A stretch of 64,000 nucleotides of DNA from an uncultured Methylomirabilota bacterium (GTDB lineage Bacteria > Methylomirabilota > Methylomirabilia > Methylomirabilales > 2-02-FULL-66-22). The notes below the pieces were generated by a model. It was not told the origin of the DNA and did no database searches. It saw only the letters and a program-made list of their open reading frames with translations. The position numbers and the translations under genes are program-made. The DNA lies in contig OY970067.1 of NCBI GenBank assembly GCA_963705305.1, forward strand, positions 1,824,001 through 1,888,000. The letters run 5' to 3'. Shown in pieces: positions 10,599 through 56,477 of this stretch (the stretch's first letter is position 1; the number at the start of each line of letters is the position of its first letter).

Positions 10599-11088
10599 GA
10601 TCTACTCCATCCAACGCCCGGATTCGTCCTTGATGGGGAGCCGGGCAGGACTCGAACTCGGGTCTTGGGCAATACCCCCTTGCTGACCTCTGCCAAAAGG
10701 TCTCGAACTTCAGATCTTCCCAGCTTCTTGGCCGGAGTGTCAAAATCACCTGATTGTGCCCTTGGCTTTCTCCCCCCTGTGCCGGTCGTTCTTGACATCA
10801 CCGACGGGCAAGCGGTAGCGTTCCCCCAATCTCCCCTACGGTCAGCATGAACTTCCCGCGTAGGCGCACGCTGCAACTCTTGGATCGACTGCGGCGGACC
10901 AGATTCACAAGGGGGAGGATAGGGAGACTTGATGGGGTGTGGATACAATTGGAGGGTCCTCGGGCCCTACCGTTCAACAGCTGCGGGGCGAAGGCTCCAC
11001 TGCTTGCCCCCTCAGATCGGCAAAGAGGATCCTGCTGAGGTCAGCGCCAGGCTCAACCGTATCATCAAGACGGTGGAGGAGTGGGCTG

Positions 11089-12243: not shown

Positions 12244-12405
12244 TGGGCATCGGTGGTATCGACTCGTCGGAGGTGGGCTAGCTCCTCGCTGAACCGCTGG
12301 TGAGGGCGTCAGGTAACAAGCAAACGCCAACGCGAGCACAGACGCCAAGTCCTGCCCCGAGTTTGAAAGTGGCTAACTGCGAAGCAGCTGGGAGGAGCGC
12401 GTGCG

Positions 12406-13095
12406 ATGAGTGAGGAACACACGGCAGATCAAGTGAAGGCAGAGCACTTGAGCCAACTTGGATTGAGGCTCGGCCCAGTCTTCTCTGAGCTGCAGAGCGA
12501 TGTCGCGTGGCTACAGGTGAAGTGGACCGAGTATCGGGAACTGTACGGAACCTCTCCTGAACGTGTGGGCCTTCTTAACGAGGCCGCCGGTCTCTTCTTC
12601 AAAATCCTCCAGAACACTCTATGGGAGGACGCACTCTTGCATCTGTGCCGCCTCACCGATCCATCAGTGATGAGGGGCAGGCAAAACCTGTCCATCCAGG
12701 CACTACCGGAACTGTGTGAGGATCCCAATCTGCGAGGTGAGGTCGCGGAACTCGTGTCCCGGGCGCTGACAGCGTGTTCCTTTGCGCGGGACTGGCGAAA
12801 TCGACACATCGGCCACAGGGATCGCACCCTAGCTCTCCAGCCCACCAGCAAGCCGTTGACCCCTGGAAGCAGAGCCGATGTATCGGCTGCCATTGCCTCT
12901 GTTCATGAAGTGCTGAACCACATCAGCGAGCGGCTATTGGGTTCGAAATTGGCCGACACGGTCATTGTCCCACCGACTGGTGCTCTCGCTCTGCTTTACC
13001 TGCTCCGTGACGGGCGCGAAGCACAAGCCGCAAAGAAAGAGCGAATCCGTTCCGGGCGGTACTCCGCAGAGGACCTTCAAGATCGCCCGATCTGA
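12406..13095 (+). CDS. HEPN-domain protein (AbiU2-like)
   Basis: GGAGGAG RBS; LCRLTD...NLS and RNRHIGH (Rx4-6H) motifs. Confidence 0.7.
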   Translation: MSEEHTADQVKAEHLSQLGLRLGPVFSELQSDVAWLQVKWTEYRELYGTSPERVGLLNEAAGLFFKILQNTLWEDALLHLCRLTDPSVMRGRQNLSIQALPELCEDPNLRGEVAELVSRALTACSFARDWRNRHIGHRDRTLALQPTSKPLTPGSRADVSAAIASVHEVLNHISERLLGSKLADTVIVPPTGALALLYLLRDGREAQAAKKERIRSGRYSAEDLQDRPI

Positions 13096-13156
13096 GGTGC
13101 TGCCCGATTCTTCTTGACGGTGGGAATAAGCGCGACTATATTATTTGCGATCGCCC

Positions 13157-13836
13157 ATGGAATCATGGATGTTCATATGCTCACGCGAACAGAAGTGCTG
13201 ACCCTGACTGGGCTGACCGGAAAGGCGCTGTCCTGGTACCGGGAGCTGGGGCTGATCCCCAAACCTGTCATCATCCGCCGAGGACGCGGAACGCAAGTCC
13301 TATTCCCCCCAGAGGTGGTTCGCGTGATCAGTGGCGTCCAGGGACTCCAGAAGCTCGGCTATTCTCTGCGCGCGATCCGCGACCGGTTCCAGGACCCCGA
13401 TGTCTATGCCCGGGTACTGGAGCCTACCCCCGAGGAAAAGGCGAGGGCGATCAGCCCGGTATTGGTCCCGGAGAATGAAAGCGCCGGGGAGGGCAGGGTA
13501 GTGCCGGTCAGTGGGATCGAGGTGGAGGTCAAGCGCGGCGAACGGGCATGGGGCCTGGACCGCCTGTACGAGGCTGTCGAGCGCGAGATCGGCAAAGCCA
13601 GCCAGGTCCACGTCGTTCTCCGCCGAGAAGGTGCGCGGGTATTTGCGAAGGTGACGGCCGTCCGCGGGGTAGCGCGCCAGCCACTCACCCGTCCCGCGCC
13701 CCGGCGAGTCGGTACCCCACGAACCATTCGCCGAACCAAAGCCGCCCACCGAGCGCGCGAGGATACGTCTTCGGAGGGTGAGGACCTGCCTGCGGTGATC
13801 CCTCCGAATTCCAGCCGCGCCCCGACCTCCACGTGA
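13157..13836 (+). CDS. MerR-like HTH DNA-binding protein (possible excisionase or regulator)
   Basis: LTRTEVLTLTGLTGKALSWYRELGLIP...GYSLRAIR; start codon uncertain. Confidence 0.65.
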
Positions 13837-13856
13837 GTGTCGGGGCGTTCTTTTTT
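13817..13856 (+). terminator. Intrinsic terminator-like hairpin
   Basis: CGCCCCGAC...GTCGGGGCG stem followed by TTCTTTTTT. Confidence 0.6.
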
Positions 13857-13892
13857 CACAGGAGCGCAGAGGCTCCAGCGCCCTAACGCGGG

Positions 13893-14135
13893 ATGCAGAT
13901 GAACTCCCGAGGAGACTTCGCCACCAGCGACATTCACCTCGCCAGCTACCTGCTCGCCACCGATCACCCGCTGCGCCAGCTCGACGGTGGCCCCGGCCAT
14001 CGTGTCTTCATCTTCGGCGACGTTGCGGCCGATGAGGTGACCGCCTTCTACGCGGGGGTCAAGGTGGACGCGCGGAAGCTGCTCGGGGCGATGCGGGACC
14101 TGAAAGGCCTCCTCGCCCAAGGGCTACGGCGATGA
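13893..14135 (+). CDS. Small protein resembling DUF5659
   Basis: TSDIHLASYL...FIF...FY pattern; overlaps the helicase start (ATGA). Confidence 0.55.
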   Translation: MQMNSRGDFATSDIHLASYLLATDHPLRQLDGGPGHRVFIFGDVAADEVTAFYAGVKVDARKLLGAMRDLKGLLAQGLRR

Positions 14136-15918
14136 CGAGCCGGCCGTCGCAGGCCTCGAAGCCCGTCTGGCACAACCTTGAGGCGGAAGTCGGGGTCCTA
14201 GGGGCCTGCCTGCAGGATGACGAGGCGGCGCGGCAAGCGACTGCCATGCTCTCCCCATCGGACTTATACCGAGATATCCACGGGGAGATCTTTGGGGTGA
14301 TCCAATCCCTCGTCGCGCGAGAGTCCATCGTAAACCTCGTCACCGTCGGCGAGGATCTGGAACGGCGCGGCCGCCTCCAGGCCGTCGGTGGCTCCGCCTA
14401 CCTGGCCGGATTGGTGGACGCGGTCCCGACCTCAGCCCCCCTGGTTCATTACGTTCGCATCGTGCGACGGTACGCGCTCCTGCGGAAATTCTACCAGGTC
14501 TGCCGGGAGGCCGCGAGTGAGGCCCGAACGGGTGCGGATCCTGCTGAAGTGCTCGTGAAACATCTGAGGGTCTTGGAGGAGCTTCGGGCCTCCGTCACCC
14601 CCGAGCCCGAGAGAGATTTGACAATAGGCGCAGATGCGTTCCTCACACCGCCTCCGGAGCTGCCGTGGGACATCGAAAAGGTTCGAGTCCATGACGACCA
14701 CGGCTGGACTGGCGGGGCCCCGAAGTCAATGAAAGGCCTGCTCCCTTAATCTCCGGATAACGTCGCAGGGCAGTAGCGCACCCGTGTGGCGCCCGCAATC
14801 ATGGCCGCGGGGCTGGCTGCCCGCATCGGACCTGGCTGCACCCGATGGGTGGCGCCCCGCAGAGGCGATGGGCACGTTAGCCGGAGATTTGGGTGCTCAG
14901 CCTGGAGGAGGCGCGGGCGTGTGCGACCGGGACGCTTTTCCTCGGGCACTTTCCCACGCAGAAACAGCGGGTCCTGTATGTCAGCGAGGAGGACCGCCAG
15001 GACCGCCTTCACCGTCGGTACCACGCAGCCGTGAAAGGCCGCCCGCCAGACGAGGTGCCCGGGCCAGAGGCCCTGCGCTTCCTCATCAAGGCGGGGGTGA
15101 GACTGGACCTGGAGTCCGGCCGGCAGCTCCTGCGCCGCCACATCGAACTCCACCGGCCGGACGTGGTCTTTCTGGAGCATTTCGATCGCTTGCACGCGGT
15201 GAACCCGAACAAACCCGAGGAGATCAAGCCGCTGCTGAACTTTCTCGACGATCTGCACCGTGAGTTCGGCTGCGTGTTCCGGGTGCAAAAGCACAACCGC
15301 AAGGAGGCGGCCGGACAGAGCCGGCGGAAGGGCGAAATGCTCGCCGGGACCATCGCACAGCACGGGTGGGGGGAGTCGTCGATTTACCTGACCCTGGTGC
15401 GGCGTGGGATCGCCCTTGTCGAGGTGGAGGCCAAAGACGGAGACACCGCTGCGCGGTTTCGCGTGCAGTATCAGGATGGTCGCATGGTCTATGGCGGAGA
15501 AGCGAACAGCGGGGATCGCATGGGGAGGTCCGGGGCGAATCAGGGACGGGTGCTGCGGGCTGTGGCTGACCAGCCTGGAGCCTCTGTTGAGGAACTCGCA
15601 AAGGCGGTGGACATGAGCGACAAGACGATCCGTCGGCACCTAAAGCGGCTCGAAGAGGCGGGCGAAGTGGTTGGACACCAGGAGAGTTCCAAGCAGCCGC
15701 GCCGTTACTGGCCGAACTCCGCAGAGGCACAGGAGAATATGCTTGGACAGCAGCCGGATTGTCCAAGCGACCGAACAGATGCCCAGCTTGAGGGCAGGTG
15801 GGTGGACACGCATGGAAGCACCCCTGAAGGGTGTTCCATGCGTCTGTCCAACCTCCCAGGACGAGGTCATGGGGGCCAGAGCGGCGGCGAGGTCGCGTCT
15901 CGCCAGCATGAGAGCTGA
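14132..15918 (+). pseudogene. DnaB N-terminal domain + RecA-like AAA_25 helicase + C-terminal wHTH, disrupted by a MITE
   Basis: HNLEAEVGVLGACL (DnaB_N); GAPKSMKG Walker A-like; VLYVSEED; removing 14744-14898 restores KGLL-SLEEAR in frame. Confidence 0.85.
14744..14893. mobile_element. IS1380-type MITE, 150 bp
   Basis: IRs CCTTAATCTCCGGATAA / TTAGCCGGAGATTTGGG; 5-bp TSD TGCTC at 14739-43 and 14894-98. Confidence 0.9.
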
Positions 15919-16340: not shown

Positions 16341-16502
16341 ATGGCCATGAAACGGACGTCGCTCCATCTGGATGACCGGGACTTGCGGGCCCTGGACCGG
16401 ATCGCCGAGGCGGAGACCAAGGCGACGGGGATCCGGGTGTCCGCGTCCGGGATCGTCCGGCGGCTCATCAAACAATTCCTCCGCGCGCAGGGCCCGCGGT
16501 AG
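16341..16502 (+). CDS. Ribbon-helix-helix (CopG-like) regulator, 53 aa, not in the ORF track
   Basis: GGAGGT RBS; MAMKRTSLHLDDRDLRALDRIAEAETKATGIRVSASGIVRRLIKQFL. Confidence 0.75.
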   Translation: MAMKRTSLHLDDRDLRALDRIAEAETKATGIRVSASGIVRRLIKQFLRAQGPR

Positions 16503-16542
16503 CGCGGGGCGCGAAGGAGATCTGGTCTCTCGGGAGGTAGGC

Positions 16543-18312
16543 ATGAGATACACCCGAACACCCGCCCAGCCGGACCCCGGCCCCCCCGGGCGCCCCTTCG
16601 CGGGGCTCTGCTTCGCCATCTACGGCCGGAAGTCCACCCTCGACGCCCGGCACGAGGACCACAAGTCCGTGACCCGCCAGGTCGAGCAGGCGACGCGCTA
16701 TGTCGAGGCCCGGGGCGGGGAGGCCCTCCCGGGCCACGTGTACCTCGACGACGAGGTCAGCGGGGCGGAGTTCCGGGCGCGGGCGGGCCTCCTGCGGTTC
16801 CTTGACACCCTGAAAAATGGGAGGGCCTTCAACGCGGTCGTCACGTCCGAGGAGTCCCGCTTCGGCCGGGAGCAGCTCGAAACGGGCTACCTCCTGAAGC
16901 AGATCACTGACGCCGGCGTCCGGGTGTTCTACTACCTCGAAGACCGGGAGGCCCGCCTCGACTCGGCCCTCGACAAGATCATGGCCTCGCTCACGCTCTT
17001 CGGCGCCGAGCTGGAGCGGGAGAAGGCCCGGCAGCGGGCCCGGGATGCCGCCGAGCGGAAGGCCCGCCAGGGCCTCGTCACGGGCGGGGAGCCCTACGGC
17101 TACCAGAATGTCCCCTACCGCGCCGGGCAGGAGGTCCCCCCCGGGGAGCCCCACGACTGCGTGAAGCGTCGGATCCAGCCGGCCGAGGCGGCCATCGTCC
17201 GGGGGATCTTCCGGATGTACGCCGCCGGCTGGGGCATCACCAAGATCGCCAAGACCCTGAACGGCGTCCCGACCTATGCCGCGCAGAGCGCGGAATTCTT
17301 CACCGGCCAGCGGGTGGCCGCCCCCCGGACCGGCTCGTGGGCGCCGACGGCCATCCGGGCTATGCTCCACAGCCCCCTCTACCGCGGGGAGCTCGTCTGG
17401 GGACGGACGACGCACACGGACCGCGACGGCCGGGCCCGGCTCACGGCGCGCCGGCCGGCCCGGGAGTGGCTCCGGCAGCCCGCCCCCGACCTGCAGATCA
17501 TCCCGGACGAGTTGTGGGCCGCCGTCCAGGCCCAGCTCACCCGGCAGGCCGAGAAGTTCGCCCAGCCCGGCGCTGGCCGGGTGGCCGCCCCGGACCTCCG
17601 GCGGGAGGGTCGGTACCTCCTCTCCGGCCTGGCCCAGTGCGGCGTCTGCGGGGGGACCTTCGCCGTGGCGGGGGGCAAGTACCGGCGGTACGGCTGCGCC
17701 CACGCCCTGAAGCGGGGCGTCTGCGACAACCGCCTCTCCCAGCGGGTGGAACTGGTCGAGGAATCCTTCCTCGCCACCCTGGAGCGGGAGGCCCTCCTCA
17801 CCCCCGCGCGGTTCCTGCGGGCGGTCGAGTACGGGGTGGCGCGGGTGCAAGAGGAGCTCGCCGCGCAGCCGGACCGGCGGCCCGCCCTGGAAGAGGAGCG
17901 GGCCACTCTCACCCGGCAAATCGCGCACCTCGTGGCGGCCATCGGCAACGGCCATGGCCCGGCGGCCCTGGTGGCGGAGATCGAGAAGGCCGAAACCCGG
18001 CTCCGGGACATCGAGGGGGAACTCGCCCGCCTGACGGTGCCGCCAGCCCTCGGCGTCCTTGACCTGAAGCGGATCGAGCGGGATGTAGCGCGGGAGCTCG
18101 GCCGCTTTGCCGCCCTCCTCCGTGGCGACGTGCCGCAAGCCCGGCAAGCCCTGAAGCGGCTCCTGGCGGACCGCGTGACGTTCGATCCGGTCGAGCTGGG
18201 AGACGGCACGTGGACGTATGAGTTTCGGGGAGAGTTGACCTACGGGGCGGTCTTACAGGAGGTTGTATCTATGGAAAAAATCCCCCTGGGGACACCATTT
18301 ATATATACGTAA
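16543..18312 (+). CDS. Large serine recombinase (integrase)
   Basis: GGAGGT RBS; IYGRKST catalytic Ser, ESRFGR, recombinase domain (PYGY; W..TAIRAML..PLYRG), LLSGLAQCGVCG Zn ribbon, coiled coil. Confidence 0.95.
   Translation: MRYTRTPAQPDPGPPGRPFAGLCFAIYGRKSTLDARHEDHKSVTRQVEQATRYVEARGGEALPGHVYLDDEVSGAEFRARAGLLRFLDTLKNGRAFNAVVTSEESRFGREQLETGYLLKQITDAGVRVFYYLEDREARLDSALDKIMASLTLFGAELEREKARQRARDAAERKARQGLVTGGEPYGYQNVPYRAGQEVPPGEPHDCVKRRIQPAEAAIVRGIFRMYAAGWGITKIAKTLNGVPTYAAQSAEFFTGQRVAAPRTGSWAPTAIRAMLHSPLYRGELVWGRTTHTDRDGRARLTARRPAREWLRQPAPDLQIIPDELWAAVQAQLTRQAEKFAQPGAGRVAAPDLRREGRYLLSGLAQCGVCGGTFAVAGGKYRRYGCAHALKRGVCDNRLSQRVELVEESFLATLEREALLTPARFLRAVEYGVARVQEELAAQPDRRPALEEERATLTRQIAHLVAAIGNGHGPAALVAEIEKAETRLRDIEGELARLTVPPALGVLDLKRIERDVARELGRFAALLRGDVPQARQALKRLLADRVTFDPVELGDGTWTYEFRGELTYGAVLQEVVSMEKIPLGTPFIYT
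18264..18309 (+). other. att-like site A, inside the recombinase 3' end
   Basis: TGTATCTATGGAAAAAATCCCC-CT-GGGGACACCATTTATATATACG; imperfect palindrome around CT. Confidence 0.75.
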
Positions 18313-28076: not shown

Positions 28077-28505
28077 TTTCTTTCCTCCGTTTCAAACCTT
28101 TTCACGAAATTGTGATGGGAAAGATCGTAGGAGAATCCGTCCCACCACCGACCATCCCCGCACGGCCTGTGCGTGCGGCGCAGCGCGGGGGCCTTAACCG
28201 GATAGGAAGTTGGAAACCGACCTCGGCGGGACGCCGGGCCGGACGAGGCGGAGCGGCCACGGGGCGGCCGAACCGAGGGGAGAACCCGCGAAGACCTCAA
28301 TACGGCAGGGACGGTACCACCGGCGGGCTGGGGGTGTCAAGGAGGGAAATCACGGGGAACAGGAATACGTTCGGTAGCACGCGGCGCGCCTGTCCCTCCT
28401 GAAAACCCCATCCTGCCGGACCTCACGCCGCTCGCCGTTCATAATGGCGATCTAAGCCGCCGGAACCTCGTGTTTCTAAAGGCGTATGATGCCTGCGATG
28501 TCAAG

Positions 28506-28530
28506 TGTACAAAAGCCTTCGGGTCCCCCT
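28506..28530 (+). other. att-like site B, left half (split by IS110)
   Basis: TGTACAAAAGCCTTCGGGTCCCC-CT; rejoins 30053 to give TCCCC-CT-GGGGACACCA. Confidence 0.75.
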
Positions 28531-28544
28531 TATATTCTCTTCGA

Positions 28545-28770
28545 GGGAAATGAGAGTACGTCGAGTATTCTGGCTCCCCCGACGAGACAGGATCCGGAGT
28601 TCGCTGGTTGAGGACCGGAGTCCCCCCATCCCGGGCGAGGATCATCCCCAGACCGTCCCCTCCAGCGACTATACGGCGTCAGGTTCAATGGGAAGTCGTC
28701 CCTCTCGAGGACCGATATAAGGCCAACCCGCCGTTCCGGACTCCGGGATCCGCTGACGGGAGAAGTGAGG
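28545..28770 (+). ncRNA. Putative IS110 bridge RNA (ends approximate)
   Basis: Target guides GTCCCCC (28620-26) and TCCCCAG (28645-51); donor guides GGAAGTC (28691-97) and ATATAAG (28715-21). Confidence 0.8.
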
Positions 28771-28777
28771 ACAGGCG

Positions 28778-29995
28778 ATGCGGTGCTACATCGGGGTGGA
28801 CTGGGCCGATACGGCGCATGCGATCAGGGTGGAGGACACACAGGGGGCCCGGGTGCTCGAGCGGGTCGTCCCTCACACGGCCGAGGGGCTCGCCGAGTGG
28901 GGGCGCTGGCTGGATGAGCGGCGGGCGAGCGGGGCGGAACTCTGGGCGGCCATCGAGCGGCCGGACGGGCGGGTGGTGGACTTCCCCCTGGATCACGGGG
29001 GGCGCGTGTTCCCGATCAACCCCAAGGCCCTGGACCGGGCGCGGGACCGCTACCGGATGAACGCCTCCAAGAGCGACCCCTTCGACGCCCACGTGCTGGC
29101 GGCCTTCCTCCGCACGGATCACCCTCATCTGCATGCCCTGCAGCCGAGCTCGGAGGCCGCCCAGGAGCTCAAGCTCCTCACACGGGACTCTGCGCGCCTC
29201 GTGCGCGACCAGACCCGCCTCGTGAATCAGCTCACGGCTACGCTGAAAGAGTACTACCCCCGGGCCCTGGAGGTCTGTGGCGACGTCCCCACCAAGCGGG
29301 CGGCGGCTTTCCTTCGCGCCTACCCGACCCCCGCGGCCTTGGCGGCGCTCGCCCGGGCCAAGTGGCTCCGATTCGCCACCCTGCATCGCTGGAACGCCGA
29401 GCCGGCGGCCGCCCTCTGGGAACTGTTCCGTCACCCGCAGCTGCCCGTGCCGGAGCACGTGGTGCGCGCCAAGCGCCGCCTCGTCCTCGTGCTGCTCCGG
29501 CCGCTCGAGACCGTCGTCCAGGCCGTGGACGACTCCCGCAAGGCGGTGATGGAGTTCTTCGCGCCGCTGCCGGCGGCGGCGTGGGCCACCACCCTGCCGG
29601 CCAGCCAGGGGACGCTGGTCCCCACGATCTGGGCCGAGCTCGGTGATGCGGCCAGCCGCTGGGTGTCCTGGCAGCACCTCCAGGGGCACAGCGGGGTGGT
29701 CCCGGTGACCCGATCCAGCGGCAAGTCCCACGCGGTCTGCTTTCGCTTCGCGTGCAACCTCCACCTCCGTCGGGCCCTCCAGCAATTCGCCTTCTGCTCG
29801 CTCAAGTCCAGCGAGTGGGCGCGGGCCTACTACGATCAGCAGCGGGCGCGCGGCCATCGGCACCAGGCCGCGCTCCGCGCCCTCGCAGCAAAGTGGGTGA
29901 AGATCCTCTTCGTGCTCTGGACCCGGCAGATCGCCTATGACGAGAACTACCATCTCGCCATGAGGACGCGCCAACAGTTGCGGCAGGCAGCATGA
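28778..29995 (+). CDS. IS110-family DEDD recombinase
   Basis: GVDWA, AIE, KSDPFDA (DEDD); SGVVPVTRSSG serine motif. Confidence 0.95.
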   Translation: MRCYIGVDWADTAHAIRVEDTQGARVLERVVPHTAEGLAEWGRWLDERRASGAELWAAIERPDGRVVDFPLDHGGRVFPINPKALDRARDRYRMNASKSDPFDAHVLAAFLRTDHPHLHALQPSSEAAQELKLLTRDSARLVRDQTRLVNQLTATLKEYYPRALEVCGDVPTKRAAAFLRAYPTPAALAALARAKWLRFATLHRWNAEPAAALWELFRHPQLPVPEHVVRAKRRLVLVLLRPLETVVQAVDDSRKAVMEFFAPLPAAAWATTLPASQGTLVPTIWAELGDAASRWVSWQHLQGHSGVVPVTRSSGKSHAVCFRFACNLHLRRALQQFAFCSLKSSEWARAYYDQQRARGHRHQAALRALAAKWVKILFVLWTRQIAYDENYHLAMRTRQQLRQAA

Positions 29996-30050
29996 GCATC
30001 TTTCTAAAGGCAATACTACTCCGTGCTCTTGACAAGGGGTCATAGGAAGT

Positions 30051-30075
30051 CTGGGGACACCATTTATATATACGT
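30051..30075 (+). other. att-like site B, right half
   Basis: CTGGGGACACCATTTATATATACGT is identical (25 bp) to 18286-18310. Confidence 0.85.
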
Positions 30076-30847
30076 TCCACGCCGGGAAGTCCGCCCTCGA
30101 TACCGTAAGACATCCGTTCCGGAAAAGTACCCTACTCCTGAGCGATGGTGCCTCGCAGGTGCACGACGACCTCACCCTGATACGGGTAGCTGCGGGAGGA
30201 GAAGTCGTTTCGGGTGCAGCCCGCTGTGTACCCTGGCCGAGTACCTGTGGCTCCTGAAAATACGTAATCAGCTTCCCGGGTGCTCTTTCTCTCACTCTGG
30301 ACCCAGCGGCCTGCCGCGACGAATTCCGTGTGTGACCACAGGACCTGTTGCATGATGCCCATCGGGCCTGCCCGGCGCGCCGTTGCGGGTGGGATGGTCC
30401 GCGCGCGGAATGGTCTCCACCGCGACACCGGGCCGCGGCGGCACCCCGTGTCGGTAACGATGGAGTCGTCGAAAGGTCGGCGGACCAGCCTCCCCTTCGG
30501 GAAGCACACGGCCGGCTTTCCCATTTTCCTGGGAACCCCTTTCGGCGTGGTATGGGGCCCTGTCCCAGCCGCGCTTTTGGGGTAGCCCCTGCACTTGGAG
30601 CGGCCGGAGGAAAGAGACCGACGAGGAGGATATACACCTCCGACGCAGCAGGTTGAGCGCGGGGCGAGCCCAAAGCGGCAGGCACAAAAAAGCCTTCGGC
30701 TCGCGAGAGCCGGAGGTCTCGTCCTCGACAGCCGCCTCATCGCCGTGGTCAGCTGTATGGATGCCCATGCCGCACTCTGTGGCGGGAATCACGGTGAGGT
30801 TGGCGATGGGCCCGTCAATGGTCGTCTTGAGTCCGCGAGTCCCCGCG

Positions 30848-32826: not shown

Positions 32827-32873
32827 CGTATATGTAAAGCGCATCCCCCTGGGGACACCACCGTGCCTGCAAC
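32827..32873 (+). other. att-like site C
   Basis: CGTATATGTAAAGCGCATCCCC-CT-GGGGACACCACCGTGCCTGCAAC; left arm mirrors the right arm of A and B. Confidence 0.8.
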
Positions 32874-33862: not shown

Positions 33863-33882
33863 GGGTCCCCCCGGGGACACCA
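33863..33882 (+). other. att-like site D (degenerate)
   Basis: GGGTCCCC-CC-GGGGACACCA, 12 nt after the brnA stop. Confidence 0.5.
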
Positions 33883-34123
33883 TAACCACCCCTGCTCGAC
33901 TCCTCGCGCTCTTCCGGTGTGTTTGATCCCCCTTGGAGCGTGATCCTGATAGTGGTGTTTCGCACCGAACGCCCCGCCTTGCACAATTCACTCGGCCGCC
34001 ACCTCCCCGGCACCACGGTCGGCCGATCAAGCTCGTGGCCGAGTTATCAGGCTTTTCGGGCAACCGCCCCCCTTGCTCTTACGACGCCGAGTTCTCCGCC
34101 GGTGACCAAGGATGATCTCCCGT

Positions 34124-34151
34124 TTGCCTTGATAGCATTCTGTGCTATCAT
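34124..34151 (+). promoter_or_regulatory. hicAB promoter and operator
   Basis: TGATAGCA-5 nt-TGCTATCA inverted repeat overlapping TTGCCT...TATCAT, 6 nt before ATG. Confidence 0.65.
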
Positions 34152-34157
34152 ACTCTC

Positions 34158-34412
34158 ATGACGACCAGGCAGCGACGGACGCTGCGAGCGGTGTCTGCTG
34201 TTCCGACTCGCACCAATCTGCGCTTCTCGGATGTCGCCGGCTTGATCGTCGCCCTGGGCGGCGAGGTCCGGGAGGGCGCCGCCTCGCGCGTGGTGTTCGA
34301 GTTGAAGGGAAGGCGTCTCTACCTGCATCGGCCACACCCCGTGCACGAGGCGAAGCGGTATCAGGTGGAAGAGGTGCGCGAGTTCCTGCCCGCGCTGGAG
34401 ATCCAGCCATGA
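34158..34412 (+). CDS. hicA: HicA-family toxin
   Basis: LIVALGGEVREGAASRV...LHRPHP...KRYQV. Confidence 0.9.
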   Translation: MTTRQRRTLRAVSAVPTRTNLRFSDVAGLIVALGGEVREGAASRVVFELKGRRLYLHRPHPVHEAKRYQVEEVREFLPALEIQP

Positions 34413-34738
34413 CGAACACCATGACGTATAAAGGCTACACTGCCCGGGTCGAGTACGATCCGCGGGACGAGATTTTCGTTGGCCGTGTTCTTGGGATCGA
34501 GGATCGCATCACATTTCAGGGCGCGACGGTCGCCAAGCTGCGTCGTGACTTTCACGCGGCAATTGATCACTACTTGGCCGACTGTGCCGCGCGCGGCCGG
34601 ACCCCGCAGAAGTCCTATTCGGGAAAGATCCTTCTCCGTGTGGCCCCCGAGATTCACGCCCGCGCCGCCATGATCGCCGAAGAGCAGGGCAAGAGCCTGA
34701 ACCAGTGGGCCGCGGAGGTCTTGGCCCGCGCCAACTGA
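34409..34738 (+). CDS. hicB: HicB-family antitoxin
   Basis: YKGYTARVEYD...ITFQG...YSGKILLRV...SLNQW. Confidence 0.92.
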   Translation: MTNTMTYKGYTARVEYDPRDEIFVGRVLGIEDRITFQGATVAKLRRDFHAAIDHYLADCAARGRTPQKSYSGKILLRVAPEIHARAAMIAEEQGKSLNQWAAEVLARAN

Positions 34739-34994: not shown

Positions 34995-35042
34995 TGTCCA
35001 CGCAGGGTTGGGTCCCTTTGGGGACACCACCCCGCCCGCTAC
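34995..35042 (+). other. att-like site E (degenerate)
   Basis: TGTCCACGCAGGGTTGGGTCCCT-TT-GGGGACACCACCCCGCCCGCTAC; left arm like B, right arm like C. Confidence 0.55.
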
Positions 35043-38760: not shown

Positions 38761-40333
38761 ATGGCTGGACGGAGGTGCGAGGTGACCGATGTACGCGAAG
38801 TGCTCCGCCGGCTCCGCCTCGGAGAGCCGGCCCGCCGGATCGCCCGCGAACTCGGGCTCAGTCGGAACACCGTGGCCGGCTACCACCGCTGGGCGCGGCA
38901 GCACGGCCTGCTCACCGGCGAACTGCCCGACGCGGCCGCGCTGGCCACGCTGCTCCACCCGCCGGAGCGCGCCCAGCCCCGGCTCGAGCAGTCCGGCGTG
39001 GCCCCGTTCCGCGCGCAGGTGGTGGCGTGGCGCCAGCAGGGTGTGGAGGGCCAGGCGATCTTCCAGCTCCTCGTCGAACAGCATGGCTTCACCGGGAGCT
39101 ACTCCGCCGTGAAGCGCTTCCTCCGCCGCCTGGAGCCGCCGACCCCGCGGGCCACGGTCCGGGTGGAGACGCCCCCGGGGGAGGAAGCGCAGGTCGACTT
39201 CGGCGCGGCGGGCCAGTTCTTCGATCCCGACCAGGGCCGCCTCCGCCGCGCCTGGGCGTTCGTGATGACGTTGGCCTTCAGCCGCCACCAGGTCCGTGGA
39301 GTTCGTCTTCGACCAGACCGTGACCACCTGGTGCCGCTGCCACCGCGCCGCCTTCGAGTGGTTCCAGGGGGTGACGCGCCGGGTGGTGCTCGATAACCTG
39401 AAGGCCGCCATCGTCCACGCGGCCCTCTACGACCCGGAGGTCCAGCGCGTCTACCGAGAGTGCGCCGAGCACTACGGCTTCCTCATCGCGCCCTGTCGGG
39501 TGCGGACCCCCGAGCACAAGGGCAAGGTCGAGCAGGGGGGCGTCCACTACGTGAAGCGCAATTGCCTCGCCGGCCAGGCCTTCCGCGACCTCCACCACGC
39601 GAACCAGCACGGCCTCCGCTGGTGCCTGGAGACCGCCGGGAGGCGCCGCCACGGCACGATCAAGCAGCAGCCCCTGGTGGCCTTCGAGACGGTCGAGCGG
39701 GCCGCGCTCCTCCCGCTCCCGGCGACCCCGTGGGCGCCGGTGACCTGGAAGCAGGCGAAGCTGCACCCCGACTGCCACGTCGTCTTCGCTGGCGCCTACT
39801 ACTCGGCGCCCTTCCGCCTGATCGGGCAGCGGCTCTGGGTGCGGGCCACGGCCACCCAGGTGCAGCTCTTCCACGAGCACGCCCTGGTCGCCACGCACCT
39901 CGCGGCCCGCCCCGGGCAGCGGCGCACACTCCACGACCACCTCCCCCCGGACAAGGTCCACTTCCTGCTGCAGACGCCGCTCTGGTGCCAGCAGCGGGCC
40001 GCCGACATCGGCCCGACCTGCGCCGCGTTCATCGCCGCCCTGCTGGGGGAGCGGCCCCTCGATCGGCTGCGGACCGCCCAGGGCGTTCTCCGGTTGGCGC
40101 CGCGCTACGGCGCGGCGCGCCTCGAGGCCGCCTGTGCCCGGGCGCTCGCGGTCGGCGAGATCCGGTATGCCACGGTGAAGACCATCCTGGCCGCGGGCCT
40201 CGATCGGCAGCCGCTGCTCGAGTTGGGGCTGGCGCCTCCGCCGCCCCCTGCCGCACCGCCCCCGCGGCATGCGCGCCCCTGGACCGACTTCTTCCCCGAC
40301 CCCGGTGGCGAAGGAGGTCCCCCATGGAACTGA
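38761..40333 (+). pseudogene. istA: IS21 transposase IstA, frameshift near 39291
   Basis: HTH; PGEEAQVDFG; VLDNLKA; KGKVE; split over two frames. Confidence 0.9.
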
Positions 40334-41117
40334 CGCACCAGCTCACCCCGATGCTCCGCACGCTCCGGCTCTCCGGGATCCTGGAGACCCTGGAGGTGCG
40401 CAACCACCAGGCGATCGAGAGCCGCGCCTCGTTCGTCGAGTTCCTGACCCTGCTCCTGCACGACGAGGTGGAGCGGCGGGCCCAGTCCGCCCTCCGGCTC
40501 CGCCTCCGCCGCGCGGCCTTCGATCCTGGCAAGACGCTCGAGGGCTTCGACTTCGGCTTCAACCCAAAGTTGAACAAGGCCCAGGTCTTCGACCTCGCCA
40601 CCTGCCAGTTCGTCGCACGGCACGAGAACGTGTTGATCTACGGCCCGACCGGCGTGGGCAAGAGCCACCTGTCGCAAGCCCTGGCGCACGAGGCGTGCCG
40701 CCGCGGGTACGAGGTCCTCTTCGTGTCCACCGGGAAGCTGCTGGCCCCCTGGCCGGCGGCCGGGCCGACGGCACGCTCGCCCACCGGCTGGCCAAGTACC
40801 TGCGGCCCGATGTGCTCGTCCTGGATGACTTCGGGCTGAAGGCCCTCCGGGCCCCCGGCCCCGAGGACCTCTACGACATCATCCACGAGCGGTACGAGCG
40901 CGCGTCCATCGTGCTCACGAGCAACCGGGCCGTGAGCGAGTGGCCGGAGATCTTCGGCGAGCCGCTCCTGGCCTCCGCGGCCTTGGATCGGCTGACCCAC
41001 CGGGCCCACTTCGTGGAGATCACGGGGGCCAGCTACCGGGCCGAGCAGACCAAGCAGCAGCTCGCGGCCCAGCGGCGCAGTAAGCCGTCACCGAAGCAGG
41101 AGGCACGCCCAGCGTAA
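40324..41117 (+). pseudogene. istB: IS21 ATPase IstB, frameshift near 40747
   Basis: GPTGVGKSHL, VLVLDDFG, TSNR, LDRL; split over two frames. Confidence 0.9.
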
Positions 41118-42860: not shown

Positions 42861-45552
42861 GTGGCGCGAGCAGGCCCCCAAGACTCCGAGTGGCGCACCC
42901 GCAAGCGCCTGATCGACCCCAGACTGCGCGCTGCCGGCTGGCGGGTGGTGAAGTTTGACCCCACCCACCCGTTCGGCAAGTCCGATGCCCTCGCTGTCGA
43001 GGAGTTCCCCACCGACAACGGCCCCGCTGACTACGCCCTCTGCGTGGACGGCCGGCTCCTCGGCGTCGTCGAGGCCAAGAAGCTCACCCTCGGCCCGCAG
43101 AATGCCCTGACCCAAGCCGAGCGCTATTCCCGCGGGGCCACGGCGAGCCCCCTCGACTTCAGCGGTTTTCACGTTCCTTTCCTCTATGCCACAAACGGCG
43201 AGGTTCTCTGGCACCACGACGTGCGGCATCCCCAGAGCCGCTCGCGCCGGATCGCCCATTTCCACACCCCGGACGCCCTGCGCGAACTGCTTGCCCGCGA
43301 CACCGAGGCGGCCTGTGACCAGCTGCTCCTGACCCCGAACAACCATCCCCGCCTCCGCCCCTACCAGGGCGAGGCGAACGCCGCCATCGAGCAGGCTCTC
43401 GCCGATCGGAAACGGCACATGCTGGTCGCCATGGCCACGGGGACCGGCAAGACGTTCACGATGGTGAACGAGGTCTACCGCCTGATGAAGGCCGGCGTGG
43501 CCCGGCGGGTCCTCTTCCTGGTGGACCGGCGGGCCCTGGCGGCCCAGGCGGCGCGCGAGTTCGCCTCCTTCGAGGCCGAGCCGGGGAAGAAATTCACCGC
43601 CATCTACGAGGTGTACAGCCAGCGGTTCCGGCGGGAAGACGTTCGAGGGCGAGCCGTTCGACCCCAACGTCCTGCCGGTCTCGTATCTCACGGCGCCTCA
43701 GGCGAGCCACGCCTTCGTCTACATCAGCACCATCCAGCGGATGACCATCAACCTCTTCGGCCGGGCCGCGGCTTTCCCGGCCGGGGACGAGGAAGACGAG
43801 CCGGACGCCGACCGCCTGGACGTCCCCATCCATGCCTTCGACCTCGTCATCGCCGACGAGTGCCACCGGGGCTACACCGCCGCCGAGGTGGCCGTCTGGC
43901 GGAATACCCTGGAGCACTTCGACGCGGTGAAGATCGGCCTCACGGCGACCCCCGCTGCCCACACCACCAGCTACTTCACCAACCTCGTGTTCCGCTACGA
44001 GTACGAGCGGGCCGTGGGGGAAGGGTACCTGGTGGACTACGACGCCGTAGCCGTCCGGTCGGATGTCCGGATGCACGGGCTCTTCCTACCGGAGGGGCAG
44101 CAGGTCGGGATGGTGGACCCCGCCACGGGGGCGGAGCAGCTCGACCTCCTGGAGGCGGAGCGGCAGTACGACACGACCGACATCGAGCGCGGGGTGACCG
44201 CCCCGGACTCCAACCGGAAGATCCTGGAAGAGGTGCGGAGCTACGCCCGCGCCCACGAGGCAGAGTACGGCCGGTTCCCCAAGACGCTGATTTTCGCCGT
44301 TCACGACCTGCCCCACACCTCGCACGCCGACCAGCTTGTGGACCTCGCCCGGGACGTCTTCGGCCAGGGCGACAGCTTCGTCCAGAAGATCACCGGCCGG
44401 GTGGACCGCCCCCTCCAGCGCATCCGGGAGTTCCGCAACCGGAAACTGCCGGCCGTGGTCGTGACCGTGGACATGCTCTCGACGGGCGTGGACATCCCCG
44501 ACCTGGAGTTCATCGTCCTCCTCCGGCCGGTGAAATCGCGCATCCTCTTCGAGCAGATGCTGGGGCGGGGGACGCGCAAGGGCGAGCACTTCCCCGACAA
44601 GACCCACTTCACCGTCTTCGACTGCCTGGGTGGGTCGCTTCTGGAGTACTTCCGCAAAGTGACGGGCATCACCGCCGAGCTGCCCCTCAAAGAGACCCGG
44701 GCGATCGCGGAGCTCATCGAGGACATCTGGCAGAACCGGGACCGGGACTACAACACCCGCTGCCTGGTGAAGCGCTTCCACCGGATTGCCAAAGCCATGT
44801 CGGGGGACGCCCGGGACCTCTTCGCCCGGTTCGTCCCGCAGGGCGATCTCGGCGCCTTCGCCGCCGAGCTGCCCGCGCGCCTCACCCGGGAGTTCTCCGA
44901 CACCATGGCGATCCTGCGCGATCCCGACTTCCAGAAGCTGTTGGAGGATTACCCCCGGCAGGCACGGCCGTTCGTCGTGGCCTACGAGGCCCAGGACACC
45001 GTGGACAGCACCCGGCTGGTCCGCGGCCCCGATGGGACAGAGTACAAGCCCGACGATTACCTGGCGGCCTTCGCCCGCTTTGTGGCGGAGAACGCCGACG
45101 AGATCGCCGCCCTTCGGATCCTCCTGACCGCTCCCCGCGACTGGAACCCGCAGGCCCTCACGGAGCTGCGCAAGCGCCTGCTGGAGTCGTCGCGCCACTT
45201 TACCGAGGCCAGCCTCCAGCGGGCGCACGAGCTGCACTACCGGAAGGCGCTGGTGGACATCATCTCGATGGTCAAGCACGCGGCCCGGGAGGACGAGCCG
45301 CTCTTCACTGCGGGGGAGCGGGTCCAGCGGGCCTTTCTGCGGGTGACCGCCGGCCGGACGTTCACGGCGGAGCAGCAGGAGTGGCTGGACCGGATCCGGG
45401 TGCACCTGGTAGAGAACCTGTCCATCGAGCAGCAGGACTTCGACGATCTTCCCGTCTTCAGCCGGCACGGCGGCTGGGGCCGGGCCAACGGGGCGTTCAC
45501 TGACAGCCTGCCGGCGCTGCTGCGCGGGCTGAACGAGGCCATCGCGGCATGA
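42861..45552 (+). CDS. hsdR: Type I restriction subunit HsdR, with an apparent +1 frameshift at ~43641
   Basis: ADY...VEAK nuclease, MATGTGKT, LVDR, DECHR, TATP, QMLGRGTR; split over the 42861 and 43741 ORFs. Confidence 0.92.
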
Positions 45553-46970
45553 GCAACGTCGTCCAAAAACTCTGGGGCTTCTGCCATACCCTCCGGCACG
45601 ATGGGATCGACCACGGAGACTACATCGAGCAGATCACGTATCTTCTCTTCATCAAGATGGCCGACGAGCGGGGCGTGGCCCTGCCGAAGGACACCGACTG
45701 GAGCAGCCTGACCAAACGGGCCGGGACGGACCTATCCGAGCATTATCAAGATGCGTTGCGGAGGCTCGGTAAGCAGGGGGGCATCCTGGGCGACATCTTC
45801 GCCGACGCCCAGTCCCGCTTCAACAACCCGGTCAACCTCAAGAAGCTTGTCACCCTGGTGGACGAGACCGAGTGGACGGCCCTGGAGGTGGACGTGAAGG
45901 CGGCAGCCTTCGAGGGGCTACTGGAGAAGGCGGCCAGTGAGGGCAAGAAGGGCGCGGGCCAGTATTTCACCCCCCGGATCCTGATCCAGACCATCGTCCG
46001 GTGTATGCGGCCCGATCCCCGGCCCCGGCGCGACTTCACCATCTGCGACCCCGCCTGCGGCACCGGCGGCTTCCTGGTGGCAGCGTACGAGTGGCTGATG
46101 GCGCAGACAAAAGGCGCGCTGGAGCGGGATGTCTGGAAGCGCGTGCGGAAGAGCACCTACTACGGCCAGGACCTCGTGGCCCGGCCTCGCCGCCTGGCCC
46201 TCATGAACCTTTTCCTCCACGGGCTGGAGCCGACGATCCACCTGGGAGACGCCATCTACGAGGCGCCGCGCTCGGAATGGTTCGATGTGGTGATGACCAA
46301 TCCCCCCTTCGGGACCAAGGGGGCGAATCAGGCGCCCGTCCGCGAGGACTTCACTGTCGCCACCTCGAACAAGCAGCTCAACTTCGTCCAGCATGTCCTG
46401 ACCCTCCTCAAGCCCGGCGGCCGGGCCGCCATCGTCCTGCCCGACAATTGCCTCTTCGCCGACCAGGCGGGCGAGGTCTTCAAGATCGTGGCCGAGGACT
46501 GCAACCTCCACACGATCCTCCGCCTCCCACGGGGCACCTTCACCCCCTATAGCCCCGGCGTGAAGGCCAACGTCGCCTTCTTCACCAAGGGCTATCCCAC
46601 CGAGACCGTCTGGATCTACGACGCCCGGACCAACGTCCCGGGGATCACCAAAAAGGATCGTCCCCTCGCCGAGTTCCACTTCGCCGAGTTCGAGAAGTGC
46701 TACGGGGCCGACCCCAACGGAGGACCGAAGCGGAAGCCTAGCGCTTCCAAGGAAGACCGTTGGCGCTCGTTCGGTATCGCCGAGGTCAAGGGGCGCGGCT
46801 TCAAGCTGGACAGTTTCAAGTGGCTGAAAGAGGAATCCCTAGAAGACCCCGACGACCTTCCCGAGCCCGAAGAACTCGCCACCGACGCCATCAGCGAGCT
46901 GGAGGCCGCGGTGGAAGAGCTGAATAAGGTGCTGGTCCTGCTGGAGAACGGGAACGGGGGCCAGGCATGA
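45549..46970 (+). CDS. hsdM: Type I methyltransferase subunit HsdM
   Basis: GQYFTPR, DPACGTGG, NPPF. Confidence 0.96.
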   Translation: MSNVVQKLWGFCHTLRHDGIDHGDYIEQITYLLFIKMADERGVALPKDTDWSSLTKRAGTDLSEHYQDALRRLGKQGGILGDIFADAQSRFNNPVNLKKLVTLVDETEWTALEVDVKAAAFEGLLEKAASEGKKGAGQYFTPRILIQTIVRCMRPDPRPRRDFTICDPACGTGGFLVAAYEWLMAQTKGALERDVWKRVRKSTYYGQDLVARPRRLALMNLFLHGLEPTIHLGDAIYEAPRSEWFDVVMTNPPFGTKGANQAPVREDFTVATSNKQLNFVQHVLTLLKPGGRAAIVLPDNCLFADQAGEVFKIVAEDCNLHTILRLPRGTFTPYSPGVKANVAFFTKGYPTETVWIYDARTNVPGITKKDRPLAEFHFAEFEKCYGADPNGGPKRKPSASKEDRWRSFGIAEVKGRGFKLDSFKWLKEESLEDPDDLPEPEELATDAISELEAAVEELNKVLVLLENGNGGQA

Positions 46971-52212: not shown

Positions 52213-52326
52213 GAATCAGGTACCGGATAGTATGCCGGGAATACCATGGGACTAAAAAAGGTACCGGACGGTATGCCGTGGATACTCTGGAACTCGCCGG
52301 TGGAAGTCCGGCCCCGGGAGCGGGCA

Positions 52327-56221: not shown

Positions 56222-56477
56222 GGAGGAACGGAGTAATGCTGTGAATGGAACTGGACAGTATGCCGTGGATACTCTGGAACTCGCCGGTGGAAGTCCGGCC
56301 CCGGGAGCGGACTTCGTCGTGAGCCCAGCCGAATAGCAACGCGCGGTGGGCCATCCGGCCTTCATGGCATCCTATGCCGCCCGACGGCGGGTTCGGCGAA
56401 GAATGGGAGCCATACCCTCTTTAAATCACGAGGCTACGCCATATATGGTGCGCGTACCTTTTTTGCGGGAGCTAATC

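Follow-up and report, generated by a model that had tools for sequence, protein, structure and literature searches.

An IS110-family element in the 64,000-nucleotide stretch of Methylomirabilota DNA analysed here (the window) is very probably an RNA-guided, IS621-like insertion sequence set to tRNA-Glu-derived attachment sites. This explanation, which as a whole we hold with considerable confidence, supports the interpretation given in a first-pass annotation made from the letters alone, namely that the bridge RNA of the element appears programmed for a recombinase att site. The observations that carry it are the anatomy of the element, a conserved RNA structure, the matching of guides to flanks and a recurrent class of target.

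In the mechanism that we propose, the left non-coding end would encode a two-arm bridge RNA, whose donor loop (GGAAGTC and ATATAAG) would pair with the joined ends of the element, GGAAGT-CT-TATAT, and whose target loop (GTCCCCC and TCCCCAG) would pair with GTCCCC-CT-GGGGA, the near-palindromic sequence where the T-stem of tRNA-Glu meets its acceptor stem. Integrating elements that use tRNA-Glu would copy this junction sequence at their own borders, and the window would hold a co-oriented row of such border copies downstream of a real tRNA-Glu gene, at least some of which would be linked with a large serine recombinase. The RNA-guided recombinase would have put the circular element into the CT at the centre of one copy, site B. 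The lineage would have kept its guide pair through about 20% protein divergence, inserting repeatedly in such copies and not in intact tRNA genes.

Anatomy of the IS110 element

The element and its parts are as follows.

28529..28530 (+): left copy of the CT core
28531..30050 (+): IS110-family insertion sequence of 1,520 bp, its ends set by termini conserved in relatives (TATAT.. and ..CATAGGAAGT)
28531..28536 (+): TATATT, -10 half of the putative circle-junction promoter and also the right donor
28778..29995 (+): DEDD/Tnp recombinase of 405 aa (PF01548, 2.3e-30; PF02371, 4.1e-10)
29996..30050 (+): right end of 55 nt, with the -35 TTGACA at 30029-34 and the terminus GGAAGT at 30045-50
30051..30052 (+): right copy of the CT core

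The element sits exactly at the CT core of site B, where it had been placed at the outset, with CT at 28529-30 and again at 30051-52, and excising it in silico restores ...GGGTCCCC-CT-GGGGACACCATTTATATATACGT. The span first assigned to it, 28506-30075, does contain the element but extends into flanking sequence. A search of the whole genome at the DNA level returned only the self-match, giving a copy number of 1.

A non-coding left end of 247 nt lies upstream of the gene and the 55-nt right end follows it, with the same CT core on both sides. The recombinase has an N-terminal DEDD RuvC-like domain with four acidic residues and a C-terminal Tnp domain; D8, E60, D100 and D103 of the former and S314-G315 of the latter, opposite the SG of IS621, align with the catalytic residues of that enzyme (chain 8wt6_A), whose roles we take from PMC11208158.

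Joined in a circle, the ends would read TTGACA, 16 nt, CT and TATATT. The sequence therefore permits the TTGACA-18-TATATT junction that had been proposed, which agrees with the promoter model, a -35 in the right end and a -10 in the left end, set out in PMC11208160, and from which transcription would start. The right-end TTGAC and the donor guides are kept in 11 of 11 aligned right ends. Because the right end is shorter here than in relatives (55 nt versus 127-182 nt) and the promoter spacing is 18 rather than 17, the window copy may be weak or inactive. Contigs assembled from RNA libraries cover the left end, coverage that is no proof of transcription. The four sequencing runs compared, all of them as assembled contigs, contained no circle or empty-site joint, a result that speaks neither for nor against circles or empty sites.

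A predicted two-arm RNA with four guides

The left end contains two arms, each with a pair of guide loops.

28601..28668 (+): target-binding arm, with lower helices 28601-07/28662-68 and 28610-16/28655-59 and apical stem 28628-31/28639-42 (RNAalifold, pair counts)
28617..28627 (+): left target guide loop, GGAGTCCCCCC, which includes GTCCCCC
28643..28651 (+): right target guide loop, CATCCCCAG, in which TCCCCAG is the reverse complement of CT+GGGGA
28672..28735 (+): donor-binding arm, with helices 28672-76/28731-35, 28682-85/28725-28 and 28698-701/28709-12
28686..28697 (+): left donor guide loop, CAATGGGAAGTC, with a match to the terminus of the right end (GGAAGT) and one further C
28713..28724 (+): right donor guide loop, CGATATAAGGCC, in which ATATAAG is the reverse complement of CT+TATAT

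The four 7-mers from which a bridge RNA was first proposed are all in place, each occurring once in the 247-nt left end: GTCCCCC at 28620-28626, TCCCCAG at 28645-28651, GGAAGTC at 28691-28697 and ATATAAG at 28715-28721. Their joint occurrence there has an expectation of 6.5e-8 from base composition, and first-order Markov simulations yielded all four in 1 of 200,000 sequences. The loops are complementary both to the target flanks and to the joined ends of the element: the left target guide loop and the left flank, CGGGTCCCCCT, agree at 8 of 11 positions, with an unbroken run of 7, and the right target guide agrees with the right flank at 7 of 7.

The consensus structure that RNAalifold gives for 15 relatives has all four guides in two large internal loops, bearing out the predicted target-loop/donor-loop layout. 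Across the 15 left ends, 98.6% of cells are paired and compensatory changes occur in 8 of 29 pairs, values that none of 500 shuffled controls equalled; slid controls had 22-49% of cells paired. A possible further closing helix (GGAGY/RCTCC) was left out of the pair counts, the alignment being out of register there. The family consensus thus keeps the guides out of stems, as the first-pass annotation anticipated, but the single-sequence fold buries one of them: the left target guide pairs with a G-rich apical hairpin (unpaired probability 0.02-0.13), at a minimum free energy of -59.5 kcal/mol versus -53.1 with the family helices enforced. The 250-nt fold has a z of 0.5.

Donor guides are conserved among relatives and target guides vary, following the flanks of each element. 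Left guides agree with their cognate flanks at 7.2 of 10 positions (n=17) versus 3.9 of 10 for non-cognate flanks (n=216); the corresponding values for right guides are 6.8 of 7 (n=11) and 2.6 of 7 (n=78). Rfam offered no meaningful family for the left end, either with the whole window at the gathering threshold or with 28400-30200 searched at E<=10.

As described in PMC11208160 and PMC11208158, IS621 of E. coli likewise has a DEDD RuvC-like and Tnp-serine recombinase, a left-end RNA with a target loop and a donor loop, a 5′ guide in top-strand sense and a 3′ guide as complement in each loop, a CT core, and a -35 in the right end with a -10 in the left end. It differs in its protein, which is only weakly similar (phmmer E 5.8e-7; 405 aa here versus a 328-residue chain), and in its target, which is REP, where here it is a tRNA-Glu-derived repeat. 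In addition, the right target guide here comprises the core plus 5 nt, and the final position of the left target guide is C where the core has T (CC versus CT), a mismatch. On sequence grounds, the protein domains, the end layout, the left-end RNA and the guide matches support assignment to the IS110 family, IS110 group, as an IS621-like element, and by homology to IS621 its catalysis would be RNA-guided.

Target sites and their link to tRNA-Glu

Several related sites lie in the window, all on the same strand.

16372..18312 (+): large serine recombinase of 646 aa (Resolvase, Recombinase and Zn_ribbon_recom)
18280..18310 (+): site A, unoccupied, within the final codons of this recombinase gene
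28491..28528 (+): left arm of site B, reading ..VKCTKAFGSP, left over from the 3′ end of a gene for a large serine recombinase
30053..30075 (+): right arm of site B, a tRNA-Glu 3′ end (GGGGACACCA) plus trailer TTTATATATACGT
32843..32861 (+): site C, unoccupied, with a left arm (VYVKRIPLGTP) similar to the recombinase end at site A
33865..33883 (+): further co-oriented site, GTCCCC-CC-GGGGACACCA
35012..35030 (+): site D, GGGTCCC-TT-TGGGGACACCA, its left arm similar to the sequence left of the IS copy in metagenome locus L026

The sequence AATCCCCCTGGGGACACCA matches the 3′ end of the genome's own tRNA-Glu(ttc) at 18 of 19 positions; with the tRNA-Glu of three congeners the agreement is complete, 19 of 19. 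All six copies of GGGACACCA in the window are on the + strand, co-oriented with the tRNA gene; within the window itself ARAGORN finds 0 tRNA genes. Sites A (18280) and C (32843), earlier described as near-matching unoccupied targets, are so: both read ATCCCC-CT-GGGGA, 12 of 13 positions in common with GTCCCC-CT-GGGGA, and both are empty.

Two types of arm are combined in site B. Its left arm is similar to the C-termini ..CTKAGVAPTGFEP of recombinase homologues and 90% identical over 40 nt to 4780300-4780339(-) of its own genome, a counterpart that joins a reverse-complement T-arm; the tRNA-like fragment at genome 4780300 has no Rfam or ARAGORN match. The right flank, CTGGGGACACCATTTATATATACGT, shares 25 identical nt with site A (18286-18310), and this 25-mer recurs at 1618019(-) of the genome and in metagenome locus L020.

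Recombinase gene-end remnants stand at sites B and C, and site A lies within the end of the intact gene. Among 19 loci of distant homologues of this recombinase, 10 have an intact tRNA at the 3′ end of the gene (6 Glu, 4 Arg) and another five a tRNA 3′ fragment. In these homologues recombinase and tRNA are convergent, whereas the recombinase of the window is co-directional. The sequence GTCCCC-CT-GGGGAC is symmetric, homology between arms starts or stops at CT, and arms switch partner exactly at CT, although exchange by the IS itself would look alike. Gene adjacency and arm swapping suggest that the repeat may serve as an att site for the serine recombinase, which would then cross over at the same CT. 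When integrative elements accrete in tandem at tRNA 3′ ends, co-oriented tRNA 3′ copies mark the segment borders, and at the att sites of large serine recombinases the end of the recombinase gene can overlap the site, with dyad symmetry around a non-palindromic central dinucleotide. Co-oriented tRNA-end copies are likewise present here, as is the overlap of a gene end with site A, and the symmetry about CT may be a further parallel. Of the earlier proposal that the IS independently marks the repeat as a conserved functional site, IS targeting shows conservation and recurrence, but not function as an att site.

A pattern scan for identical target guides returned 9 metagenome loci and one same-genus genome (G019). 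These same-guide elements, in sub-lineages 80-83% identical in DNA, occupy 9 distinct sites. All nine lie in tRNA-Glu-end-like or T-arm-like sequence, 6 of 6 with both flanks included, and the same-guide homologues are not in unrelated sequence, in agreement with the specialisation on the att-like repeat suggested at first. The sites of the window, L020 and L021 read ..CT-G/CGGGACACCA.. and those of L026, L028 and G019 read ..CT-GGGGA(A/T)TCGAACCC... The elements in L020 and L028 are 100% identical and lie in two different sites, that in L028 being the same 13-mer as in sites A and C. No intact tRNA gene was present at occupied sites or, by ARAGORN, at rebuilt empty sites (0). A serine recombinase was not found within the flanking sequence of 8 of the 9 occupied sites, nor did a Pfam search find a recombinase beside the sites in G016, G017, G019, L021, L022, L025 and L028; scans of viral_contigs for the guide pattern, the right junction and the recombinase gave 0 each.

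Alternative readings and implications

The element might have no preference for att sites, a possibility that we regard as real but rather unlikely. Its guides would then accept any GTCCCC-CT-GGGGA-like 13-mer by the same mechanism, and the association would be a selection filter, insertions in genes and real tRNA having been lost. Many other targets exist, because only 5 of the 41 sites in the genome within one mismatch of the target are att-like (all five empty) and the two empty exact 13-mers (2548583, 2676533) lie in coding-like DNA; no rebuilt or occupied site is an intact tRNA gene, and IS110 elements occupy harmless repeats such as REP (PMC11208160). Enrichment in att-like sites could come from purging of gene insertions, not preference. 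This reading sits less easily with 6 of 6 fully flanked sites being att-like versus about 12% expected from the own-genome census (a rough comparison, across different genomes), with the retention of the guide pair across 80%-identical lineages, and with left guides such as those in L020 and L028 that lengthen the match into tRNA-end sequence (GGTGTCCCCCT).

It is improbable that site B was never an empty site (..GCCTTCGGGTCCCC-CT-GGGGACACCATTTATATATACGT) and that its flanks come from two sites, joined by recombination between element copies or another rearrangement. The natural partner of the left arm elsewhere is a reverse-complement T-arm (4780295(-)), and in site B this arm meets a forward tRNA end, the partner changing exactly at the insertion point; yet in site D, where no IS is present, a similar left arm also adjoins a forward tRNA end, tandem accretion at one tRNA predicts junctions between the end of one element and the start of the next, and the genome has neither a second IS copy nor the reciprocal junction. 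We give very little credence to the repeat being a REP-like palindrome or terminator with no tie to tRNA or site-specific recombinases. An inverted repeat of 6 bp forms its core, palindromes at several of the occupied sites are longer (L020, TGGTGTCCC..GGGACACCA; G019, TCGAATCCC..GGGATTCGA) and REP hairpins are preferred by IS110 relatives, but the repeat agrees with the 3′ end of tRNA-Glu at 18-19 of 19 positions, discriminator and CCA included, and its copies lie co-oriented downstream of tRNA-Glu. One copy, moreover, lies in the last codons of a recombinase gene whose homologues adjoin tRNA ends, and CTGGGGACACCA has 8 copies in 5.6 Mb, well below a REP family.

The reading of an RNA-guided element set to tRNA-Glu-derived sites has partial precedents. 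ISPpu10 and ISPpu9 (Pseudomonas putida, IS110 family) also occupy one conserved palindromic intergenic repeat, in which a stem-loop is reported to add specificity, but that target is REP (bioRxiv 10.64898/2026.03.19.712850; PMC12288879). IS1111 relatives target attC, as the first-pass annotation had said and as PMC11187229 states: the IS1111-family elements ISKpn4 and ISPst6 (integron attC) and IS4321/IS5075 (Tn21 inverted repeats) are RNA-guided DEDD systems whose target is the recombination site of another element. They differ in that their guide RNA lies downstream of the gene and their inverted repeats are subterminal, and in targeting integron or transposon sites, not tRNA-derived island borders. 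Our literature searches brought up no tRNA-Glu-derived target class for the IS621-like group.

The palindromic tRNA-Glu end is copied at island borders, and the element therefore appears to live in the docking sites of other elements. A bolder version, which we put forward tentatively and consider unlikely as it stands, is that this IS110 lineage specialises in living in the att sites of tRNA-Glu-targeting integrative elements, its 13-nt target being the inner core common to attB, attP and their junctions. It would insert at the crossover CT of the serine recombinase and, since IS110 elements excise without a scar, would reversibly lock islands in place, the same islands carrying it from host to host.

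For tool builders, the family provides a natural set of guides with their targets, in which the right guide is 7 nt long and the target, a palindrome, is used in both orientations. For the biology of the family, the bridge RNA would be naturally set to the acceptor/T-stem junction of tRNA-Glu, a sequence found in nearly every bacterium, and the element is in practice found only in the harmless copies left by integrating islands. If the link to recombinase sites is true, the theme of one element targeting the recombination site of another would widen from integrons and Tn21 to tRNA-anchored islands, and the system would provide a simple model for how an RNA-guided element chooses safe, widespread landing pads.

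The insertion sequence at site B

The window's IS110-family insertion sequence sits at the CT core of site B, as the first-pass annotation proposed, with a CT on either side and with its ends set by termini kept in relatives (left TATAT.., right ..CATAGGAAGT).

28531–30050, + strand: IS110-family element, 1,520 bp, termini conserved in relatives
28529–30 and 30051–52: copies of the CT core flanking the element
28778–29995, + strand: IS110-family recombinase ORF, 405 aa (Pfam PF01548 at 2.3e-30, PF02371 at 4.1e-10)

Deleting the element and one CT yields ..AAAGCCTTCGGGTCCCC-CT-GGGGACACCATTTATATATACGT, of which the 25 nt rightward from the CT are identical to site A (18286–18310). A search of solved structures with the 405-aa protein matched only the ISCro4 (E 2e-7) and IS621 (E 6e-7) transposases, and the alignment places D8, E60, D100, D103 and S314–G315 opposite the IS621 residues that PMC11208158 identifies as the DEDD motif and as the catalytic serine and its neighbouring glycine. 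The non-coding ends measure 247 nt (left) and 55 nt (right). Joined in a circle they would read TTGACA-N18-TATATT; the 18-nt spacing claimed for this junction is found in the window's ends, and the closest relatives have the hexamers 17 nt apart. A DNA search found no second copy in the whole 5.65-Mb genome. Given its 55-nt right end, 18-nt promoter spacing and single copy, the window copy is possibly sluggish. The left flank of site B (28473–28483) and the element's shortened right end (30001–30011) share an 11-mer, TTTCTAAAGGC; it is in this part of the right end that the window copy departs from its 92–96% identical relatives. The element carries every sequence-level IS110-group feature that could be checked, and we infer that its mode of action would be IS621-like.

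Bridge RNA and guides

The four 7-mers previously read as target guides (GTCCCCC, 28620–28626; TCCCCAG, 28645–28651) and donor guides (GGAAGTC, 28691–28697; ATATAAG, 28715–28721) are all present, each once in the left end. Their joint occurrence in 247 nt of such composition has a chance expectation of 6.5e-8, and one of 200,000 first-order Markov simulated sequences held all four.

Scanning by protein, with each species represented by a single genome, yielded relatives at 15 loci (39–71% identity). Their aligned left ends share a fixed scaffold: GAGGACC, 11 variable nt, ATCC..GGAT C, 7–8 variable nt and GACnGTCCC, followed by GGTTCAATAGGAAGTn GTCC..GGAC CGATATAAGGC and AACC. The RNAalifold consensus of 15 sequences (the window, 11 of the 15 relative loci and three metagenome copies) has two arms, each with a lower helix, a large internal loop and an apical stem, and the four loop strands hold the four 7-mers, bearing out the claim that the guides lie in two internal loops. 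Fetched loci were omitted from this alignment for an unalignable 5′ part (L008, L010), excessive divergence (L017, L018), duplication of included rows (L023, L026, L027), an element the same as that of L020 (L028) or a cut or interrupted sequence (L024, L025). Standard pairs fill 98.6% of the 434 cells of the consensus structure, and 8 of its 29 pairs show changes on both sides. The observed values were reached by 0 of 500 shuffles for four of five measures and by 2 of 500 for the fifth; with pair partners slid by 1–3 columns, 22–49% of cells were still paired.

Burial of the guides in stems, the outcome that would count against this layout, is absent from the family consensus but does appear for the left target guide when the window RNA is folded alone. 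There, the C-rich guide pairs with a G-rich apical hairpin (unpaired probability 0.02–0.13), with a minimum free energy of −59.5 kcal/mol against −53.1 kcal/mol when the family helices are enforced, and the 250-nt window fold does not outdo shuffled sequences (z = 0.5). We regard this pairing as a caveat rather than a refutation, because relatives with other guides cannot conserve it. A further helix, CCGGAGT/ACTCCGG (28594–28600 with 28744–28750), would close both arms; by eye, relatives have counterparts (GGAGC/GCTCC, AGAGC/GCTCT and similar) where the alignment is out of register.

Across relatives, the donor-loop sequences and right-end terminus are kept, whereas the target-loop sequences differ and track each element's own flanks. 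The left guide matches the last 10 nt of its cognate left flank at 7.2/10 positions (n = 17), against 3.9/10 for non-cognate pairs, defined as those with differing guides (n = 216); the right guide matches the core plus 5 nt at 6.8/7 (n = 11) against 2.6/7 (n = 78). The fit improves one base out of register at L011 and L012. In the window, left guide GGAGTCCCCCC agrees with CGGGTCCCCCT in 8 of its 11 bases; the final base of the guide is C against the core T, and related L020, L024, L025 and L028 have CT there. The guide strand sense is consistent with the published model of PMC11208160. The nearest relatives with other guides (L005–L007, L011, L015; the L005 protein is nearest, at 71% identity) all target CCCTCACCC..-CT-CTCCC, apparently a GC-rich palindromic repeat in the host genomes.

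Among sequencing runs, X1, which may come from the source sample, has contigs that include pieces identical to the window, the right junction among them, and X2 and X20 contigs join an L026-type left arm to the element's left end. Assembled contigs of RNA library X20 are restricted to 28521–28751, which is a weak hint, not evidence, that the left end is transcribed.

Same-guide copies and tRNA-Glu ends

The window's target-loop pattern matched nine metagenome loci, one of 250 other phylum genomes (congener G019) and no viral contigs. With L021 and L023 the same in sequence, and L026 and L027 one locus with a single flank difference, these make nine distinct occupied sites including the window's, six with both flanks known. 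Left flanks terminate in (G/A/T)TCCC(C/G)-CT or TCCCCC-CT. Right flanks fall into two classes: CT-GGGGACACCATTTATATATACGT (window and L020, with the same 25-mer) or CT-CGGGACACCACGCAAGTATACC (L021), and CT-GGGGA(A/T)TCGAACCC.. (L026, L028, G019), the reverse complement of a T-arm. The element thus accepts the target in either orientation with respect to the tRNA-like sequence, as the near-palindrome TCCCC-CT-GGGGA permits. All six doubly flanked sites are tRNA-end- or T-arm-like, so that at these sites homologues with the same guides do not sit in unrelated sequence. The rebuilt empty sites (seven records from five distinct sites) include no intact tRNA genes, and ARAGORN found no tRNA within the 18 kb surrounding the G019 copy.

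These copies form three sub-lineages: the window, G019 and L026 (92–96% DNA identity), with L022 and L027 having near-identical left ends; L021 (83% DNA, 80% protein identity); and L020 with L028 (80.5% DNA, 81.7% protein identity). The elements of the last two are 100% identical at different sites, indicating recent transposition, and that of L028 has inserted in the 13-mer which sites A and C share, ATCCCC-CT-GGGGA. The L024 copy, whose RNA is broken by unrelated sequence past the target arm with no donor arm after it, is probably broken.

In the genome that carries it, the 13-mer target, its CT kept invariant, is matched at 41 sites when up to one mismatch is allowed; the reversed control is matched at 11. 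All 41 are unoccupied; two are exact, in coding-like DNA, and five are att-like. Empty att-like near-targets include GTCCCC-CT-GGGGGCACCATTTATATATACGC at 4791711 (−) and, at 1557047 (−), an A-like arm, CT and GGGGACACG; at the latter, the other strand carries the remains of a recombinase (tblastn E 8e-9).

3.4 kb left of the window, + strand: tRNA-Glu(ttc) gene, 3′ end ..GGGTTCGAATCCCGCTGGGGACACCA

Sites A and C (AATCCCCCTGGGGACACCA) agree with the end of this gene at 18 of 19 positions, and with the native tRNA-Glu gene in three congeners at all 19. The six copies of GGGACACCA in the window (18289, 30054, 32852, 33874, 35021 and 63677) are all on the + strand, with none on the − strand, and CTGGGGACACCA occurs eight times in the genome, against 0–3 times in 20 congeners. 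The trailer TTTATATATACGT recurs at sites A and B, at 1618019 (−) in the genome and at L020, and nearly so at 4791711 (−); true tRNA-Glu genes have a different trailer in each congener and none has this one, so the trailer moves with mobile DNA. The first-pass observation is confirmed, and its interpretation, that the IS specialises on the att repeat or its tRNA source, is supported.

Serine recombinase, site B and the island

16372–18312, + strand: large serine recombinase, 646 aa, ending ..VVSMEKIPLGTPFIYT*, with site A in its final codons

To the left of this gene lie integrative-element-type genes (Mrr nuclease, AbiU2, DnaB-N domain, AAA_25/HTH protein). Homologues at E ≤ 1e-30 occur in 47 of 251 phylum genomes (tally including G075). 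At ten of the 19 homologue loci retrieved, the 3′ end of the recombinase gene adjoins or overlaps that of an intact tRNA (six Glu, four Arg-CCT); at five it meets a 3′ fragment of a tRNA, and four have nothing tRNA-like (one cut by a contig end, one with a truncated match). These homologues converge on the tRNA; the window's recombinase is co-directional. The surrounding DNA examined at the other eight occupied sites yielded no recombinase. At one congener site (G018) a tyrosine integrase is close by, so more than one integrase kind may use the tRNA-Glu end.

A fragment of a similar recombinase gene at 1602010–1602308 (−) has the same DNA as site A up to ..ATCCCCCTGG and diverges beyond; in 1601900–1602310 (−), this C-terminal fragment continues into AGTCATACG and then ACGTATATATAAATGGT, a 17-mer that is the exact reverse complement of ACCATTTATATATACGT in the shared right arm. 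The left arm of site B (..VKCTKAFGSP) resembles the C-termini ..CTKAGVAPTGFEP of recombinase homologues and is 90% identical to 4780300–4780339 (−), which runs into a reverse-complement T-arm; that of site C reads VYVKRIPLGTP.

Left-arm homologies stop at CT and the shared right arm starts there. Such a switch fits crossing-over by a serine recombinase at this dinucleotide; an exchange through the IS would leave the same pattern. Site B itself has a recombinase-end arm on one side of the CT and a forward tRNA end on the other. Its formation by rearrangement through the IS is unlikely, since a comparable junction exists at site D without any IS. Tandem accretion at one tRNA, in which an element's end would meet the next element's start, predicts such junctions.

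Defence-type cargo lies between sites (8934–15918, 42861–46970: Mrr-like nuclease, AbiU2, type I restriction R and M), and the window also carries HicB (34142–34738), IstB (39460–40839), rve transposases and a 95-nt repeat present five times (52263–61259). Rfam has two group II intron matches in that region, at 52294–52431 and 54122–54269; several such introns or fragments stand there in series. The tRNA-Glu gene is separated from the first island genes by a Fur-family regulator, an OprB porin and ZnuABC (genome 1820577–1826372; window 30–2372); either this zinc-uptake cluster belongs to the cargo or the island begins, on its left, somewhere other than the tRNA.

Among the papers listed in literature searches, none linked IS110 or bridge RNA to tRNA-Glu, those returned on IS110 elements together with attachment sites, serine recombinases and tRNA were unrelated, and the target-sequence file (file 5) of the PMC11208160 supplements has no occurrence of TCCCCCTGGGG or CCCCTGGGGA; the target class is the aspect absent from that literature. 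The closest parallel is the IS1111 group, which, according to PMC11187229, targets the attC sites of integrons and the inverted repeats of Tn21. The element's target is both apt and recurrent.
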